Below, piece after piece: positions 35,847 through 43,594 of a stretch of 64,000 nt of DNA; position 1 is the first letter of the stretch; the number at the start of each line of letters is the position of its first letter. The stretch covers positions 6,901 to 70,900 of the forward strand of contig SVSH01000004.1 in the NCBI GenBank assembly GCA_015064395.1, given 5' to 3'. The notes below the pieces were generated by a model. The model was not told the DNA's origin and did not search any database. It worked only from the letters and a program-made list of their open reading frames with translations. This DNA is from Oscillospiraceae bacterium. GTDB lineage: Bacteria; Bacillota; Clostridia; Oscillospirales; CAG-272. Made by a program: the position numbers and the translations under genes.

Positions 35847-37106
35847 ATGAGCCGAAAGTGGCGTTTTGACGTGTTGTGGCGCGCGTTGCGCCTGCGTCGC
35901 GGTGTCTCCGACGAGAAACAAGCCCCTCCCATCCGCGAAGTTCTGACGGACGAGGGCTACTACCGTGAGATCTCTCTGCGCTACGGTACGGCACAGATCG
36001 TGTGTATCATGCTGCTTGCCGTCTTTGTTGCCGTTTCGCTGGTGACCAATACCGAGCTGCTCTCGGCTAATAATCTGATCTATTTTGCCAAGGATCTGAC
36101 CAGATCTATCGCCATGAGGGAGACCGAAGCACGGGATACGCTGGTCTATTCGGCCGATTCGGATAATCAGTTTGCTCTGTACCGTGACGGCCTTGCTACG
36201 CTCGGCAAGAATAAACTCACCGTATTTACCGCCACGGGCCGCGAGGCGCATTCGCACCTGCTGTCCTATGCGACGCCCCGCCTTGTGACCTCGGGTCGCT
36301 ATCTGTTAGCCTACAACCTCGGGGGCAGAGAGTTTGGCTTGTATAATTCCTTTACCAGCGTCAAGCAGGCGACCGTGTCTCAAAACATCCGTGGGGCGGC
36401 GATGTGCAACAAGGGCTACTATTGCTTGATCACCGACGGGGAGGCGAGTGAGAGCCAAGTCCTTTTGTACAACGACAGCCACCGTATGATCTCGCGCTAC
36501 TCCTTGCAGGAATATACTGTATGCGCCGATATCCGGGACGATGGTAAAGAGATGGCCATCGTGTCCGTCTCCGCGCAAAACGGACGCATGGTGACGCACG
36601 TGGCGCTCGTCACGCCCGGGGCTACTGAATGGGGTGCTTCCTGGACGATCCCCGACGTCTATGCCGTGCAGTGCCATTACACGAGTGATGGCAATCTTCT
36701 CCTGCTTTCCACCAATGCCGTGTATTGGTTTGACGCCTCCGGACAAATGCTGCAAACACACGCCTTTTCGCCGGATGACGTGCTCTCCTTCCGCGCCGAC
36801 GGCGAGAGCTGTCTGCTTTTGTCGCGTGCCAACGCCTATGACAATTCCACCCGCGTGGAAGCGTTTGACAAAGCGGGAAATCGGGTGTATAATATGACTG
36901 TTGAAGAGGCAGTGCTGGACGCCGCTTGGGACGGCGGGGCACTGGCGGTCCTGACCCGAGACCGGCTGACGGTTTACCCGGCGGATTCCGCACAGGACAG
37001 TGTAAGTGTGTCCTTGAAGGAAGGCTATCGCACGCTTTTGATCTGCGAAAACAATGAATTCATGCTCTGCGGAGATGCCAAGGCGATCACCGTACAGCCG
37101 AATTGA
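35847..37106 (+). CDS. membrane-anchored beta-propeller-like hypothetical protein (DUF5711-like)
   Basis: One N-terminal TM followed by repeated short beta-strand units; directly upstream of cvpA. Confidence 0.6.
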   Translation: MSRKWRFDVLWRALRLRRGVSDEKQAPPIREVLTDEGYYREISLRYGTAQIVCIMLLAVFVAVSLVTNTELLSANNLIYFAKDLTRSIAMRETEARDTLVYSADSDNQFALYRDGLATLGKNKLTVFTATGREAHSHLLSYATPRLVTSGRYLLAYNLGGREFGLYNSFTSVKQATVSQNIRGAAMCNKGYYCLITDGEASESQVLLYNDSHRMISRYSLQEYTVCADIRDDGKEMAIVSVSAQNGRMVTHVALVTPGATEWGASWTIPDVYAVQCHYTSDGNLLLLSTNAVYWFDASGQMLQTHAFSPDDVLSFRADGESCLLLSRANAYDNSTRVEAFDKAGNRVYNMTVEEAVLDAAWDGGALAVLTRDRLTVYPADSAQDSVSVSLKEGYRTLLICENNEFMLCGDAKAITVQPN

Positions 37107-37148: not shown

Positions 37149-37871
37149 ATGAAATATTTTCTCGATATATCGCTCGTGCTGCTGATCGTGCTGACGGTGA
37201 TCCTTTGCTGGAAAAAAGGATTTATCCGTTCCGTGTTTGGCGTAGCAAAAAACCTTGCGGCAATTATCATCACCTATATGCTGGGCTCGACGGCTTCTGC
37301 CTGGATCTCCGAGCATCTGGTCACCCATCGGGTCACGGATTATGTCCATGATCGCCTGCTTTCCATGTTTGAAGCAGGCGCTGAAACCTTCGACCTCACC
37401 CACATCTTGGATAACATCCCCTCCTGGGTCGAAATCTTTTTCCAAAAGGGCGGCCTGGATGCCGATGCGCTGGCAGGACAGCTGGGAAGCCTGACGGAGG
37501 CAGATGCCACATCCTTGGAGGCCCTGGCCACCTCGCTGGCTTCCCCCATTACCCAAATGATCTCGGATTTTCTTGGATACACGTTGGTCTTTTTGGTATC
37601 GCTTTTGGTGCTGACCATTTTAGCACGTCTTTTGTACAAGGTTGCCGAGCTGCCCGTGATCCGTAACGTTGACCATTTGCTTGGATTGGCGCTTGGTGTT
37701 TTGTGTGCTGTTTTGTACGCCTCCGCCTATACGTTGCTTTTGTTCGCTTTGCTCAGCATGATCGAGGGCGTTCAACCTGATTTTGCTTTCCACGAAGCGT
37801 ATGAGCAAACGATTATTTTCCAAAAAATATACAGCATCAACCTGTTCCGCTTCATATTCGGCATCGGTTGA
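37149..37871 (+). CDS. CvpA family membrane protein
   Basis: LDI..., WKKGFIRSV and IRNVDHLLGLALG motifs; multiple TM segments. Confidence 0.85.
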   Translation: MKYFLDISLVLLIVLTVILCWKKGFIRSVFGVAKNLAAIIITYMLGSTASAWISEHLVTHRVTDYVHDRLLSMFEAGAETFDLTHILDNIPSWVEIFFQKGGLDADALAGQLGSLTEADATSLEALATSLASPITQMISDFLGYTLVFLVSLLVLTILARLLYKVAELPVIRNVDHLLGLALGVLCAVLYASAYTLLLFALLSMIEGVQPDFAFHEAYEQTIIFQKIYSINLFRFIFGIG

Positions 37872-37919
37872 GGTTGCATCAGACAGAAAGGATAGGCCAG
37901 CGTTGGCCGTGGTAAATAG

Positions 37920-40316
37920 ATGATCAAATGTGCAAGATGCCGGAAGCGTCCGGCGATGATCTTTGTGACCAAGGTGGAAAACGGTCAGAAAAGCAGCGAG
38001 GGACTCTGTATCGTCTGCGCCAAGGAGATCGGACTGCCCCTGGAGAACATGATGGGTGGCGCCCTGGATAAGCTGGGATTGACCCCCGAGCAGCTGGCCG
38101 GCATGAGTGAGGAAATGGAGCAAATGCTGGAGTCCGGCATGGGGATGGAGTCCGAGGGGCTTGACGAGATGGAGGATTCCGACGACAACGAAGAGGGCAC
38201 AGATGCCGCCGAATCCAAAAAGAAGGGAAGCGAGCACGTCGTTCCCACCTTTGACTTCCGCAAGCTGTTTGAGCAGGCGGGACTGATCTCGGCGCAAAAG
38301 CCCAACGTTCCCACCCCCGGCGAGGAACAAAAGGGCGAGGGCAAGCCCAAGGGCGAGCGCGCCCCCAAGGATCATGACAAAAAGTATAAATATCTGCCGG
38401 CATACTGCCGCAATCTGACCAAGAGCGCAAAGGAGGGCAAGCTCGACCGCATCATCGGCCGTGACAAGGAGCTTTCCCGCGTCATTCAGATCCTTTGCCG
38501 CAGACAAAAGAATAACCCCTGCCTGATCGGCGAGCCGGGTGTCGGTAAGACGGCCATCGCAGAAGCCTTGGCTTTGCGCATTGCCGAGGGCAACGTGCCG
38601 TATAAGCTCAAAAACAAGGTGATCTACCTGTTGGATCTGACCTCGCTCGTTGCGGGCACGCAGTTCCGCGGCCAGTTTGAGGCGCGCATCCAGGGCTTGA
38701 TCAATGAGATCAAGGACGCGGGCAACGTGCTGCTGGTCATCGACGAGGTGCATAACCTGGTCGGCACCGGTAACTCGGAGGGCAGCATGAACGCCGCCAA
38801 TATCCTCAAGCCCGCCCTGTCGCGCGGCGAGATCCAGGTGATTGGCGCGACTACCCTTAACGAGTACCGTAAATTCATCGAAAAGGATGCAGCCCTTGAG
38901 CGCCGCTTCCAGCCCGTCATCGTTGACGAGCCCTCGGTGGACGATACGGTGGATATGCTGCGTGGGATCAAGCATTATTACGAGGAGTTCCACGGTATCA
39001 TCATTCCCGACGACCTTTTGCGGCGCACCGTCGTGCTGTCCGAGCGCTATATCACCGACCGCTACCTGCCCGATAAGGCCATTGACCTGCTCGACGAGGC
39101 GGCTTCGTACTTGTCGCTCAATACGGCGGTCATCAACGAATCGTATGATATTCGGGATCAGCTCCTTAAGCTCAAGGCTGAGCGCGAAGCACTGGAGGCC
39201 CAGACCGGCTCGCTTGAGGGGGCGGACGCCCAGCGCAATTACGAGCAGATCGCGCAGATCCGCGCCAAGGAGCTCAAGCTCTCTGACCGCCTGCACAAGA
39301 TCGAACCCGAATGCGCCAAGGTATACCTGACGGTCGAGCAACTGGCCGCTGTGATCGAGGTGTGGACGGGCGTTCCCGCCAGCACCATCGGAGAGAACGA
39401 ATTTGAAAAGCTGTCCCGCCTGGAGGATAACCTCAAGACCCGTATCGTCGGTCAGGACGAGGCCGTTCGCGCCGTCGTTCGCGCCATCAAGCGCAACCGC
39501 GCGGGCATTTCCTATAAGAGAAAGCCGGTGTCCTTCATTTTTGCAGGTCCTACCGGTGTGGGTAAGACGGAGCTGGTCAAGACCATTGCCGCCGAGCTGT
39601 TCCACACGCCCGAGACGCTGATCCGACTGGATATGTCCGAGTTTATGGAGAAGCACTCTGTTTCCAGAATCATCGGAGCGCCTCCCGGATACGTGGGCTA
39701 CGACGAGGCCGGGCAGTTGACCGAAAAGATCCGCCGCCATCCCTATTCCGTCGTGTTGTTCGACGAGATCGAAAAGGCACACCCTGACGTGCTCAACATT
39801 CTGCTTCAGATCCTGGACGACGGCCGTATCACCGACGCCGGCGGCAAGACGGTCAACTTTGAGAACGTCATTCTCATCATGACCACCAACGCAGGCTCCG
39901 ACCGCACTTCCTCCGCTATCGGCTTTTTCGAGGACGGAAAGTCGCTTGCAGAAAGCAAGACGGAAAAGGCACTGTCGAGCTTTTTGCGCCCCGAGTTTAT
40001 CAACCGCGTGGACGAGATCATCACCTTCCGTTCGCTCGACGAAAAGGATTTTGCCCGCATCGCAGGTATCATGCTGGGGGATCTGGCCAAGGCTTTGAAG
40101 GAAAAGGACATGAACTTCACCTATACGCCTGCGGCCGCATCTCTTATTGCCCAAAGATCCTTCTCGCAAAAGTTTGGCGCACGCCATATGCGCCGCTTCA
40201 TTCAGCGTGAGGTGGAGGATATGCTGGCAGAGAAGATCTTAGCCGACCAAAAGCACGCCATCACCCAGATCCGACTGTCTGTCAGCGGTGGTCAGCTCGT
40301 GCTTGACTGTATGTGA
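37920..40316 (+). CDS. ATP-dependent Clp protease ATP-binding subunit with N-terminal C4 Zn finger (ClpE-type)
   Basis: CARC...CIVC N-terminus with no Clp-N repeats; two AAA+ modules ([16 protein letters not shown]); RLDMSEFME; IGF loop. Confidence 0.9.
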
Positions 40317-40362
40317 TTTTGTTTGAATAGCCCGTAAAATTCAGCAAGAAAGGAGGACGAAT

Positions 40363-43167
40363 ATGCAACAACCGATGGAGCAGTGGCATACCATGTCGAT
40401 CGACGAAGTACAAGCACGCTTGAAAACCGACGCTGAGCACGGACTCAGCCCCAAGATCGCGCGCAGACGCCTTGAACGCTTTGGACGCAACGAACTGTTT
40501 TTGCCCGAGCCGTGTAGCCTCAAGGCCTGCATTCTGCGTATTTTGTCCGATACCTCCTTGCTCGTTCTTGCCTTTATCTGCCTGATCGCCCTGTTCTTTG
40601 GACGCTTTGCCACCTCGCTGACGGTGCTGTTCGTCCTGGCGGTCAGTTGTGCGGTCAGCGTGGCCGCTTATCTCAAGACCAATCGCATCAAGGAGGCGAT
40701 GAGCAGCTATTCTGCGCCTCGCGTCCGCGTTGTGCGGGGAGACCGCGTCCTGCTTTGCGATGCGGCGAGCATCGTCCCCGGAGACGTTTTGCTGTTGCGG
40801 GAGGGGGACGTCGTTCCTTGTGACGCCCGCCTGGTCTCTTCCTCGCCCGACTTTTGCGTGCTGACCTATCACTGTGACGAGCGAGGCAAGGTCAGCTATT
40901 ATCCTTCCCCCAAGGATGCCGGTGTCGTCTATAGCCGCCAAGATAATGAGCCTATCCTCAAACGGGCCAATATGGTCTTTGCGGCCGCTGTGGTGCATCA
41001 GGGCGAGGCGCGCGCCATCGTCACCGAAACGGGCGAAGCAACACTGATCGCCTCCGAGCAAGGTCCGCACCCGCTGGCCATGCCGGTGGGAGATCCCGGC
41101 TATCTCTCCCCCATGCGTAAGTACATGAACCGCTACAGCATCATTATGTGCGCCCTGATCCTTCCCGTGACCATCATCGGCATCTTTGCGGGCAGGGGAA
41201 GCGTTGACATTTTGGACGTGCTGCTCTTGACGGTGTCGCTCGTGGTGTCCTCCATGAATGAGCAGCTGCTTTCCATGGGACGCATCGTTTGCGCCTGTGC
41301 GGTCATTCGTGCATCCTATGCATCCAATAAGGAAAACGCGGCGATCATTAAAAACTATGCCGCACTGGATTCGCTTTGCCACGTAGACGATCTGTTTTTG
41401 CTTGGCAGAACGGCACTGTCCGACGGACATTTGCACCCTTACGCCGCCTATACCGCCCAGGGCCTGTTTATCGGTCACAAGCTGAAAAACCCGGCGGTCT
41501 CTCAAATGTATGAAACGGTGTATCGCTACGAGCGCTGTATTGAACAAAACGGCCTGATCTACGAACAGCAGGAAAATGCAGAGGAGTGGATCTCGGGCGT
41601 GCATCAGCTGGGAGATCTTTTGTCCTTTGACCGCGCGTCTGCCGATATCCGAACGCTGTCTCTGCGTCCCGTTGAGGTAGCTCCCGAATGGGTGGAGGTC
41701 GTGATGCGCCCGACAGCGGAGAATGCGGCCGAGCGCCGCTTCCGTATCCATCGCTGTACCCAGCCGGAGCCTCTGTTGCGCTGCAACGCAAGCAATAAGG
41801 GCGGCAAAACGGTAGCCTTGGAGGAATCCGAGCGCAAGATGCTGTTTGATATTTTCTGCCGCCTGAAAAACCAGGGGACAGAGGTGTGCGCTTACCTTCG
41901 TGAGGAGCGAGGATACGTCATCTTTGAGGGTATTTTGTCCTTCCGTGAGGCGTTTGATCCCGGCTTGCGGGAAACGCGCCGCCAGTTGGACGAAAGCCAC
42001 GTCCGCATTTCGCTGTTTTTGCCGGAGGAGGGCAACTATTATTTGAATTATCTGCTGTCCGCAGGATGGATCGATTCGGAGTCAGAGGTAGTCTCGGCTT
42101 CCCGCGTGGCGGCCGTCGGTAAGACGCTGGCTGATGTTTTCGATAAGAAGAGAGTCTTTTTGGGCTTCTCGGACGAGGAGATCGCAGAACAGATCCGTCT
42201 TTGCCGTGACATGGGTCGGACGACGGCGAGCCTGGGACTTCGCCACGGCGATTCTCCCGCCATGACACCGGCGAATATCTGCTTTAGCTGTGAGAGCCGC
42301 CAGTATAGCTCGGATGCCCCCAACGAGGCGAGCATCGAGCCGCTCTCACTCCAGACGATCGACGAGTGCGACCAGTCCGTCCGCCGCAACGCTGACGTTC
42401 TGATCCGCCGCGCAGGGCCGGATGGCGGCGGGCTTTCGGGCATCGCCAACGCCATATACACCGCCCGCGCCATCAGCTTTCGTATGATGCTGACCATGCA
42501 ATACCTGCTGGTCGCTCAACTGTTGCGTGTGACGCTGGTCGCCTTGCCGCTTTTGCTTGGCTGGTTGACTATCTCTCCCGCCTTGCTGCTCATCAGCGGC
42601 GTGTGGGTCGATCTCGCCTATATTTTGGTTTGCGCGTTCCATCATTGCAGCCTTGACGTGCTACGCGATGCACCCGACTATGACCGTTTCTTCAAGTCTC
42701 CCTTGCGTAGCCGCCCCGACTGGGTGTGCGCGACGCTGATCTGTGGCGCCTTTACTACGCTGGCAGGCTGGATTTTGAAGGGAACCGGTGTAGCACCGCA
42801 AGGAAACGGACTGCAGCTGTACATCTTCTTGGCACTGCTTGCCGCGCAGACCTGCCTGCTCCTGTGTCTCTTGCGCGTGGCGGGATCGTTTGCGGGGAAT
42901 TGGAAGGCACACGCATCGTCCCTCTTGATCCTTTTGGCCTTGCTGGGTATCCTTTGCCCGATCCTCTTGATCTCGCCCATTGCCGCTTGGTTCGGCGCGG
43001 GCGGTATGTCCGTCCTGATCGTCGTGTTCTCGCTGTTTGCGCCGCTGTATTTGTTGGGTAGCTACTTTATCTCGCTGTCCTATCGACCGAGATTCATGCG
43101 CATCATTCGTGATACTTTTGGAAAAATCGGAAGAAATTCCGGAAAGAATGACACCCCCCGTGAATAA
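40363..43167 (+). CDS. P2A-type ATPase homologue lacking all catalytic motifs (probable pseudo-pump)
   Basis: Retains GLSPKIARRRLERFGRNEL, IVPGDVLLLREGDVVPCDARL, RANMVF and the C-terminal TM bundle; lacks DKTGT, TGES, PEGL, KGAPE, TGD and GDGxND. Confidence 0.85.
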   Translation: MQQPMEQWHTMSIDEVQARLKTDAEHGLSPKIARRRLERFGRNELFLPEPCSLKACILRILSDTSLLVLAFICLIALFFGRFATSLTVLFVLAVSCAVSVAAYLKTNRIKEAMSSYSAPRVRVVRGDRVLLCDAASIVPGDVLLLREGDVVPCDARLVSSSPDFCVLTYHCDERGKVSYYPSPKDAGVVYSRQDNEPILKRANMVFAAAVVHQGEARAIVTETGEATLIASEQGPHPLAMPVGDPGYLSPMRKYMNRYSIIMCALILPVTIIGIFAGRGSVDILDVLLLTVSLVVSSMNEQLLSMGRIVCACAVIRASYASNKENAAIIKNYAALDSLCHVDDLFLLGRTALSDGHLHPYAAYTAQGLFIGHKLKNPAVSQMYETVYRYERCIEQNGLIYEQQENAEEWISGVHQLGDLLSFDRASADIRTLSLRPVEVAPEWVEVVMRPTAENAAERRFRIHRCTQPEPLLRCNASNKGGKTVALEESERKMLFDIFCRLKNQGTEVCAYLREERGYVIFEGILSFREAFDPGLRETRRQLDESHVRISLFLPEEGNYYLNYLLSAGWIDSESEVVSASRVAAVGKTLADVFDKKRVFLGFSDEEIAEQIRLCRDMGRTTASLGLRHGDSPAMTPANICFSCESRQYSSDAPNEASIEPLSLQTIDECDQSVRRNADVLIRRAGPDGGGLSGIANAIYTARAISFRMMLTMQYLLVAQLLRVTLVALPLLLGWLTISPALLLISGVWVDLAYILVCAFHHCSLDVLRDAPDYDRFFKSPLRSRPDWVCATLICGAFTTLAGWILKGTGVAPQGNGLQLYIFLALLAAQTCLLLCLLRVAGSFAGNWKAHASSLLILLALLGILCPILLISPIAAWFGAGGMSVLIVVFSLFAPLYLLGSYFISLSYRPRFMRIIRDTFGKIGRNSGKNDTPRE

Positions 43168-43224: not shown

Positions 43225-43539
43225 GTGTCGCGTTGTACGACGGTATCATTAAAAAAGAAGGAAATCATCAATCTTTGCGACGGCTCGCGTCTGGGATTTG
43301 CGACCGATTTTGAGTTCGATCCCAAGTGCGCGACACTGACGGCTTTGCTCGTGCCGCGCGGCGGATGTGGATTTTTGGGGCTTGGCAAACCGGAATATCT
43401 GTTCATCCCTTGGTGTAAGATCGAATGCATCGGGGAGGATACGATCCTTGTGCGTATATCACACGAAGAGGAACGAGCGTTGACGAGTTCCATTTGCAAT
43501 GATTCGTGTGAGAGTAAGAAAAGTAAAACCAATTGTTAA
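43225..43539 (+). CDS. YlmC/YmxH family sporulation PRC-barrel protein
   Basis: KEIINLCDGSRLG..D.E, IPWCKIECIGEDTILV; GGGAGG RBS with a GTG start. Confidence 0.9.
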   Translation: MSRCTTVSLKKKEIINLCDGSRLGFATDFEFDPKCATLTALLVPRGGCGFLGLGKPEYLFIPWCKIECIGEDTILVRISHEEERALTSSICNDSCESKKSKTNC

Positions 43540-43565: not shown

Positions 43566-43594
43566 TTGAAAGTTGGAACGGGATGTGCTATAAT
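43566..43594 (+). promoter_or_regulatory. sigmaA promoter for rpsB-tsf
   Basis: TTGAAA-N17-TATAAT with TGn. Confidence 0.75.

Follow-up and report, generated by a model that had tools for sequence, protein, structure and literature searches.

A full-length P2-type ATPase homologue without catalytic motifs is encoded directly downstream of clpE in uncultured gut Clostridia

We analysed a stretch of 64,000 nucleotides from an Oscillospiraceae bacterium (assembly GCA_015064395.1, contig SVSH01000004.1, positions 6,901 to 70,900 of the forward strand; hereafter, the window). It contains an intact open reading frame (ORF) for a P2-type ATPase homologue, here called the pseudo-pump, in which the catalytic motifs are absent. 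The protein retains the fold of a pump, is under purifying selection, belongs to a large family of equally motif-less proteins, and is encoded next to clpE. Our favored reading, to which we assign a probability of roughly 0.4, is that the pseudo-pump, itself non-catalytic, serves as a platform or regulator in the membrane and would work with the ClpE unfoldase and, via the IGF loop of ClpE, with ClpP. A preliminary description, made from the DNA letters alone, had interpreted the ORF as a dead pump selected for a non-pumping role. The refutation tests that it proposed were run and none of them refuted that interpretation, which is therefore supported. Its view did not extend to the linkage to ClpE, to how large and how taxonomically restricted the family is, or to a conserved Arg-Asp pair.

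Reading frame and loss of the catalytic motifs

Translation of positions 40363-43167 of the forward strand was stop-free over 934 residues, and the motif AAGGAGG precedes the ATG by 6 nt, in agreement with the uninterrupted 934-codon frame and the strong ribosome-binding site described before. The gene and its segments are as follows:

40363..43167, forward strand: pseudo-pump ORF, 934 residues; P2-type ATPase fold, catalytic motifs absent
40350..40356, forward strand: Shine-Dalgarno motif AAGGAGG, 6 nt ahead of the pseudo-pump ATG
40384..41313, forward strand: recognizable N-terminal part with Cation_ATPase_N (residues 8-75), membrane helices M1-M2, barrel of the actuator (A) domain (116-245), and M3-M4; based on Pfam and an alignment with LMCA1
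41257-41268, forward strand: NEQL (residues 299-302), in place of PEGL
41401..41427, forward strand: former phosphorylation loop, LGRTALSDG for (C/S)DKTGTLT
41401-41415, forward strand: LGRTA (residues 347-351)
41755-41769, forward strand: CTQPE (residues 465-469)
From residue 529, forward strand: EAFD
42019-42027, forward strand: LPE (residues 553-555), in place of TGD
42235..42252, forward strand: former Mg2+-binding hinge, GLRHGD (residues 625-630) for GDGxND
42517..42612, forward strand: M5-M6 core, Q719..R722 for N..E of Ca pumps and G746..D750 for N..(T)D

LGRTA, NEQL, CTQPE, LPE, GLRHGD, and EAFD had all been quoted as replacements of catalytic motifs, and each was recovered at its place on translation. 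TGES is absent from 40852-40914, as had also been stated; in the alignment with true pumps, DERGKVSYYPSP sits at the TGES-aligned position of the A domain. Two assignments had to be loosened. The phosphorylated Asp of DKTGT had been equated with Leu347; the site indeed holds no Asp, but alignments differ by a shift of one residue and pair it with either L347 or G348. Likewise, the KGAPE motif is replaced and CTQPE lies where it was reported, but its counterpart in the MAFFT alignment is RCTQP.

The cation site had been described as mostly lost, and this was borne out. Only the equivalents of the Ca2+ ligands E309 and D800 are kept (as Glu E300 in M4 and Asp D750 in M6), while N768 is replaced by Q, E771 by R, N796 by G, and T799 by V. 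The segment 40384..41313 is the most conserved region across the pseudo-pump family; its A-domain barrel keeps the pattern GDxxxLxxGDxxPxDxR.

The domain models gave the same picture. The only Pfam matches were PF00690 (8-75) and PF00122 (116-317), and PF00702, PF13246, and PF00689 did not match the pseudo-pump even at E ≤ 1. Every NCBIfam pump model scored far under its cut-off; the best was TIGR01522 (PMR1-type Ca pump) with 97.6 bits against 798.3, and TIGR01116 reached 45.7 bits against 703.4. The best sequence matches in the PDB were Listeria LMCA1, for residues 24-334 only, and SPCA1. The phospho-aspartate cycle is the defining feature of P-type ATPases. As all enzymatic hallmarks were lacking and the fold alone was retained, it would be wrong to classify the pseudo-pump among the cation-transporting ATPases. 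Exactly this mislabelling had been predicted, and the homologue P0030 is called a 'cation-transporting P-type ATPase' by NCBI.

Retention of the pump fold

The structure of the pseudo-pump was predicted with AlphaFold2 from a 32-sequence family alignment. The model was confident over the full length (predicted local distance difference test score, pLDDT, 85.3; predicted template modelling score, pTM, 0.83) and comprised ten long membrane helices; the A, phosphorylation (P), and nucleotide-binding (N) regions, rich in beta structure, followed the usual order. A Foldseek comparison with the PDB yielded 269 matches at E ≤ 0.001. The top 50 were all P2/P3 pumps with about 950 aligned columns, and the best match was human SPCA1 in the CaE1 state (8iwp; template modelling score, TM, 0.70/0.73). 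Structures in the E1 state ranked above those in E2P states, a modelled conformation that carries no functional conclusion. Since the matches are all P2/P3 pumps across the whole length, the pump scaffold is predicted to be retained from end to end, in line with the P2 scaffold recognized earlier by eye.

Purifying selection and expression

Selection was quantified as the ratio of non-synonymous to synonymous substitution rates (dN/dS), with the closest orthologue (L019; 98% protein identity, from an independent run) as reference. The two genes differed by 185 synonymous and 17.5 non-synonymous differences, which yielded an unsaturated dS of 0.335, a dN of 0.008, and a dN/dS of 0.025. The ratio was lowest, 0.014, in the former catalytic P/N region (341-690), and amounted to 0.021 in the N-terminal third and 0.043 in the C-terminal helices. 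For orthologues at 70-73% identity, values of about 0.09-0.12 were obtained with saturated dS, and the neighboring clpE gene gave about 0.05. No frameshifts were found in the relatives, fragmented assemblies aside, and the gene recurs across many independent assemblies and runs. Motif loss across the orthologues, intact frames, the low dN/dS, and the retained fold uphold the earlier proposal of selection for a non-pumping role in place of decay.

Four bovine gut metatranscriptome runs contained contigs of 151-336 nt with a depth of 2-3 and 95-99% identity inside the pump ORF, which hints weakly at transcription of the pseudo-pump.

A large family with its own conserved residues

With a word-indexed search, 28 full-length relatives were retrieved that shared 48-98% identity with the pseudo-pump, and another four that shared 26-27%. 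All were without hydrolase-domain matches, and nearly all matched, like the pseudo-pump, only PF00690 and PF00122; true pumps ranked next and aligned with the first third only. An exhaustive phmmer search of 1.84 billion cluster representatives yielded 277 proteins at E ≤ 1e-30. The best 150 of the 277, each representing one 50%-identity cluster, were examined. Among these matches listed, identities ranged from 24 to 60% and most sequences aligned end to end. All 150 were devoid of DKTG and GDGxND where these motifs would be expected; none of the 146 new representatives carried DKTG at the expected place or GDGxND anywhere, and 46 of 46 true pumps carried both. The comparison of orthologues called for earlier thus extends from 98% to about 22% identity, and the catalytic motifs were intact in none and absent in all.

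In an alignment of 170 members, the family and the real pumps shared A-domain barrel residues and a few glycines. The residues specific to the family include an S/T-D-G signature in the former phosphorylation loop (S/T353-D354-G355; D354 82%, G355 83%), H358 (71% conserved, three residues past G355 and outside 41401..41427), and D423. Further specific residues are G601, which stands where pumps have the Arg of the (F/Y)AR motif, a few residues before the conserved P-domain Lys; R683; G689-G690 (Asp-Asn in pumps); and, within the membrane part, Q719 and R722 (in Ca pumps, Asn and Glu, respectively), G746, and D750. Arg/Lys at position 722 and Asp/Glu at position 750 co-vary: both were present in 136 members, neither in 20, and 14 were mixed, with an odds ratio of 113 that is not corrected for phylogeny. 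R722 and D750 may form a built-in charge pair that would fill the old cation pocket and stand in for the bound ion.

Position 348 is Gly in 76% of the 170 members, including P0001, and Asp in 14% (24/170). The member P0029 (locus L001, 8001-10790) reads FDKTALSDG, which is close to DKTG. TGD, GDGxND, and TGES are missing there too, so the scattered Asp348 does not count as evidence of activity. The C-termini differ between subclades: P0030, P0031, P0032, and P0093 share a conserved ...(R/H)RTAK tail, and the subclade of the window has basic, disordered tails with an acidic finish (PRE, DDE, PEE).

Phylogeny and distribution

A maximum-likelihood tree was built from 37 motif-less proteins and 30 true pumps (two rows, L025 and L039, turned out to be non-ATPase ORFs and were disregarded). 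The motif-less proteins formed clades of their own apart from all true pumps, with support values of 93-100 in the Shimodaira-Hasegawa-like approximate likelihood ratio test (SH-aLRT), and were not nested in any single active subfamily.

A second, less degenerate motif-less lineage was observed in another GTDB family of the class (L108, 253-2874, and L112, 397-3033, in genomes G354 and G313). It reads GKTG(V/I)(L/V)TQ for DKTGTLT, TGNE/TGIS for TGES, PSKL for PEGL, and S/TYD for TGD. The next downstream ORF is rRNA methyltransferase-like, and the tree branch lies apart from the main family. This lineage may represent an independent loss of the motifs.

The distribution was scanned with a profile of the C-terminal two thirds of the pseudo-pump. 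Among 399 scored genomes of the class, nothing exceeded the level of real pumps save the own genome and one weak case, and among 301 genomes of the order, matches occurred only in the GTDB family of the window. Inspection of ClpE loci revealed members in one more family of that order (L130, L132, L134). Within the own family, about 73 of the 121 sampled genomes, from many genera, had a full-length member, 39 had none, and 9 were unclear. Presence in these genomes was read from the match range; the full-length profile A3 also scores real pumps, with about 225-265 bits over positions 5-636. Profiles were required: a single-sequence search with the C-terminal 605 residues found the protein in only 8 of 201 genomes of the order, an underestimate.

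The named records all stem from uncultured Clostridia ('Eubacteriales' or 'Oscillospiraceae' metagenome-assembled genomes, MAGs) of human, sheep, buffalo, goat, and termite guts, and the window sequence recurs in faecal and bovine gut metagenomes. Among the genomes sampled, the family thus occurs only within a group of uncultured Clostridia from gut and rumen, which belong to two GTDB families. One genome, G213, holds two full-length copies of the pseudo-pump (contigs C75 and C123; 424 and 414 bits).

Gene neighbourhood of the pseudo-pump

The pseudo-pump gene lies in a string of genes on the same strand:

37149..37871, forward strand: gene for a CvpA-like (Colicin_V family) membrane protein (PF02674, E = 6.3e-16); starts the cvpA-clpE-pump-ylmC string
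37920..40316, forward strand: gene for a ClpE-type double AAA+ unfoldase of 798 residues (Pfam AAA, AAA_lid_9, AAA_2, ClpB_D2-small)
43225..43539, forward strand: gene for a YlmC/YmxH-family PRC-barrel protein of 104 residues (TIGR02888, 56.8 bits against a cut-off of 44.2), 57 nt past the pump stop; ends the block
43566..43594, forward strand: promoter-like site TTGAAA-17-(TG)TATAAT before rpsB, a consensus match only; likely end of the clpE-pump-ylmC unit

The upstream AAA+ protein has the features of ClpE-type HSP100 proteins, i.e. a zinc ribbon CARC...CIVC (residues 4-33), a long acidic linker, two AAA+ modules, and a ClpP-binding (I/L/V)GF loop, here an IGF loop (AIGFFEDG). The NCBIfam models of ClpA and ClpB stayed below cut-off, and the assignment to ClpE is based on the features above. 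The genome also encodes ClpP, ClpX, and a second Clp ATPase. The gap between the clpE stop and the pump ATG is 46 nt. No terminator-like sites were seen between clpE, the pump gene, and ylmC, and the only good promoter-like site in this stretch lies ahead of rpsB.

Linkage was counted in 23 distinct motif-less loci with enough flank, the window not included. In 21 of the 23, as well as in the window, a clpE gene (55-90% identical) lies directly upstream, with gaps of 15-52 nt. As a negative control, 80 loci were fetched by GDxxPxDxRL, a pattern common to all P-type pumps; most were true pumps, and clpE directly preceded none of the 58 DKTG-bearing loci. The gene string ecfA-ecfA-ecfT-truA-DUF5711-cvpA-clpE-pump-ylmC-rpsB-tsf is conserved down to 27% pump identity. 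In most related loci cvpA is found upstream of clpE, and ylmC follows the pump in most; two loci (L006, L026) keep the pump and ylmC without a following rpsB.

In the genomes of the order that lack the pump, the genes after clpE vary widely. As gene order after clpE is broken there, the linkage of ClpE and pump is not just frozen synteny. One pump-less genome (G210; locus L118) reads cvpA-clpE-ylmC-rpsB.

Two loci of 'Oscillospiraceae' MAGs have no clpE before the pump. In L028 (3790-6579), an ABC-2-like permease and a lipoprotein-like ORF are found instead, and in L029 (5995-7326) a small HAD-like ORF. The context of L028 looks like a secondary rearrangement, because the tree groups L028 with the Clp-linked L034 and L038.

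The conserved DUF5711-cvpA-clpE string is headed by a DUF5711 protein of 419 residues (35847-37106, forward strand), which evolves fast (20-54% identity where ClpE has 55-90%). Within its ORF, about 255 nt before cvpA, lies a 12/12 sigma-70-like site TTGACA-17-TATAAT (36865-36893, forward strand; a consensus match only), which could be an internal promoter of cvpA-clpE-pump-ylmC.

Possible functions and alternative explanations

The gene product would be a pseudo-enzyme, i.e. a free-standing, full-length P2-type homologue that is predicted to be unphosphorylatable and incapable of dephosphorylation, in which the cation site is lost and the fold of the ten-helix membrane domain and of the A, P, and N domains persists. 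The gene spacing and the absent terminators suggest co-transcription with the upstream clpE and the downstream ylmC/ymxH. From the gene linkage we infer a physical or functional tie between the pump and ClpE: the pseudo-pump may anchor ClpE at the membrane or hand membrane substrates over to it. In a more specific version, which we consider rather unlikely, the dead pump and ClpE-ClpP would form a two-part machine, in which the pump would be the dedicated receptor in the membrane or a lateral gate. The ATP-idle scaffold would hold or partly expose membrane proteins, and the AAA+ motor would supply the force to extract, degrade, or remodel them. If true, this machine would be a bacterial counterpart of membrane quality control of the FtsH type or the P5A-dislocase type, built from a pump and a Clp unfoldase.

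Several points weigh against a joint role of pseudo-pump and ClpE. Family members are found in other gene contexts (L028, L029). The linkage was inherited vertically within the two sampled GTDB families and represents few independent events. A ClpE of the same architecture was present in every genome examined, the pump-less ones included; thus ClpE has no need of the pump. The pump is also dispensable, as roughly one third of the genomes of its family do without it. The co-variation statistic for positions 722 and 750 ignores phylogeny, the AlphaFold2 model is silent on function, and the metatranscriptome contigs, at a depth of 2-3, may be DNA carry-over or stem from close relatives.

In the strongest competing explanation, the pseudo-pump is likewise non-catalytic and has an independent function in the membrane, unrelated to ClpE; for instance, it could sense the membrane state, ions, or pH, provide a path for passive leak or uniport, or act as a structural scaffold. 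We regard this explanation as possible but doubtful. The gene order would then only mark the place in a stable housekeeping block (ecfA-ecfA-ecfT-truA-DUF5711-cvpA-clpE-...-rpsB-tsf) at which the ancestral copy was inserted. The synteny of the whole block in the family, the unchanged ClpE where the pump is absent, and the other neighbors of L028 and L029 agree with this explanation. So do the dead pumps of L108/L112, which adjoin an rRNA methyltransferase-like gene and have no Clp match in their short flank. However, the pump stays behind clpE where the genes further downstream differ (L006, L025, L031-L034), and at other clpE loci of the order a variety of genes is found downstream. An open ion path, moreover, is at odds with the charge pair in place of the cation ligands.

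The preliminary description had also raised the possibility of a heterodimer with an active pump, in which the pseudo-pump would be a regulatory or structural subunit of an active P2-type pump of the same cell. The genome does encode three intact P-type pumps, two of the P2 type (C3, C41; with DKTGT, TGES, and GDGxND) and one CopA-type pump, and dimeric P-type pumps exist, with MgtA dimer structures among the fold matches. Yet the active pumps are unlinked, on other contigs, and the pseudo-pump adjoined an active pump in none of the loci read. Active P2 pumps are near-universal, so their co-occurrence is uninformative. The proposal found no support and has a low probability.

Similarly improbable is that ClpE-ClpP has the pseudo-pump as a substrate or as a substrate-like regulator, or that the pseudo-pump is a membrane protein of a sporulation stage that acts with YlmC/YmxH. 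In most loci ylmC/ymxH is next after the pump, and spo0A and spoIVA are present in the own genome. However, ylmC also directly follows clpE where the pump is absent (L118). The phyletic pattern of spoIVA gave no support to the link with sporulation that had been suggested: among the 121 genomes of the family, spoIVA occurred in 65 of the 73 with the pump and in 31 of the 39 without it (Fisher p = 0.26), and there are near-complete genomes, G021 for instance, in which the pump is present and spoIVA is missing. Given this missing association and the pump-bearing genomes without spoIVA, the pump is not tied to sporulation capacity.

It is very improbable that the protein is still an enzyme on unconventional residues, e.g. 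D354 or the Asp348 of some members. The 82-83% conservation of D354-G355, the Asp348 in 24/170 members, and the DKTA of P0029 would speak for activity. Against it, Asp348 occurs in only 14% and is Gly in P0001; the Thr of TGD, Lys684, both Asp of GDGxND, and TGES are all replaced; and no HAD or hydrolase model matched. D354 was specifically considered as an alternative phosphorylated Asp and rejected: it is conserved, but the remaining catalytic set is missing.

An ordinary pseudogene in decay, for which the motif loss alone speaks, is ruled out by the dN/dS of 0.025 and the intact frames in the window and all relatives, and an assembly artefact has next to no probability in view of the recurrence in independent assemblies and runs.

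A large, selected, free-standing bacterial family without phospho-Asp chemistry implies that the pump scaffold can serve another purpose, and it offers a clean natural system in which to study the function of this scaffold in the absence of the phosphorylation cycle. Its consistent association with ClpE suggests that a Clp unfoldase of these abundant Clostridia of gut and rumen may have a hitherto undescribed partner in the membrane. Annotation of the family members as cation-transporting ATPases inflates transporter counts in metagenome-based metabolic models.

Comparison with known systems

Among known systems, the P2A Ca2+-ATPases (LMCA1, 6zhf/9euq; SPCA1, 8iwp/7yai; SERCA; the PMR1-type pumps of TIGR01522) have the same fold over the full length (TM 0.70-0.73). 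The likeness includes the N-terminal segment, M1-M4, the A-domain barrel, and the ten membrane helices. Unlike these pumps, the pseudo-pump has no phospho-Asp, TGES, TGD, or GDGxND, does not match the hydrolase and N-domain models, has Q, R, and G in place of the ligands N768, E771, and N796, and falls on a branch of its own outside the real pumps.

P3A plasma-membrane H+-ATPases have an Arg (M5)/Asp (M6) pair in the transport site (Arg655/Asp684 in AHA2). In these pumps, as presumably in the pseudo-pump, a basic residue of M5 faces an acidic residue of M6 at the position of the cation site; however, the P3A pumps are active enzymes, whereas the pair of the pseudo-pump occurs in a protein without a phosphorylation cycle.

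The upstream gene product shares with the ClpE of Firmicutes the zinc ribbon that replaces the Clp_N domain, the two AAA+ modules, and the IGF-type ClpP loop. Literature searches revealed neither a dedicated membrane partner of any described ClpE nor an account of dead P-type ATPases as a family in bacteria. The nearest precedent, and the only one found in these searches, is the P4-ATPase module of the alveolate guanylate cyclases (P4GC), in which DKTGT/LDGET are altered or missing in some lineages, e.g. Cryptosporidium and P4GC-beta (PMC13466520). As in the pseudo-pump, a P-type scaffold is kept despite changed catalytic Asp/Glu residues, and a non-pumping role is suspected. The P4GC module, however, comes from eukaryotes, belongs to the P4 (flippase) type, is joined to a cyclase, and has degenerated only in part. 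The pseudo-pump, by contrast, is a free-standing, P2-like protein of bacteria in which all signature motifs are lost.

Two long ORFs on the reverse strand, 40282-42000 (572 residues) and 37620-40187 (855 residues), overlap the pump and clpE genes; they were taken for frame artefacts of coding DNA with 55% G+C.

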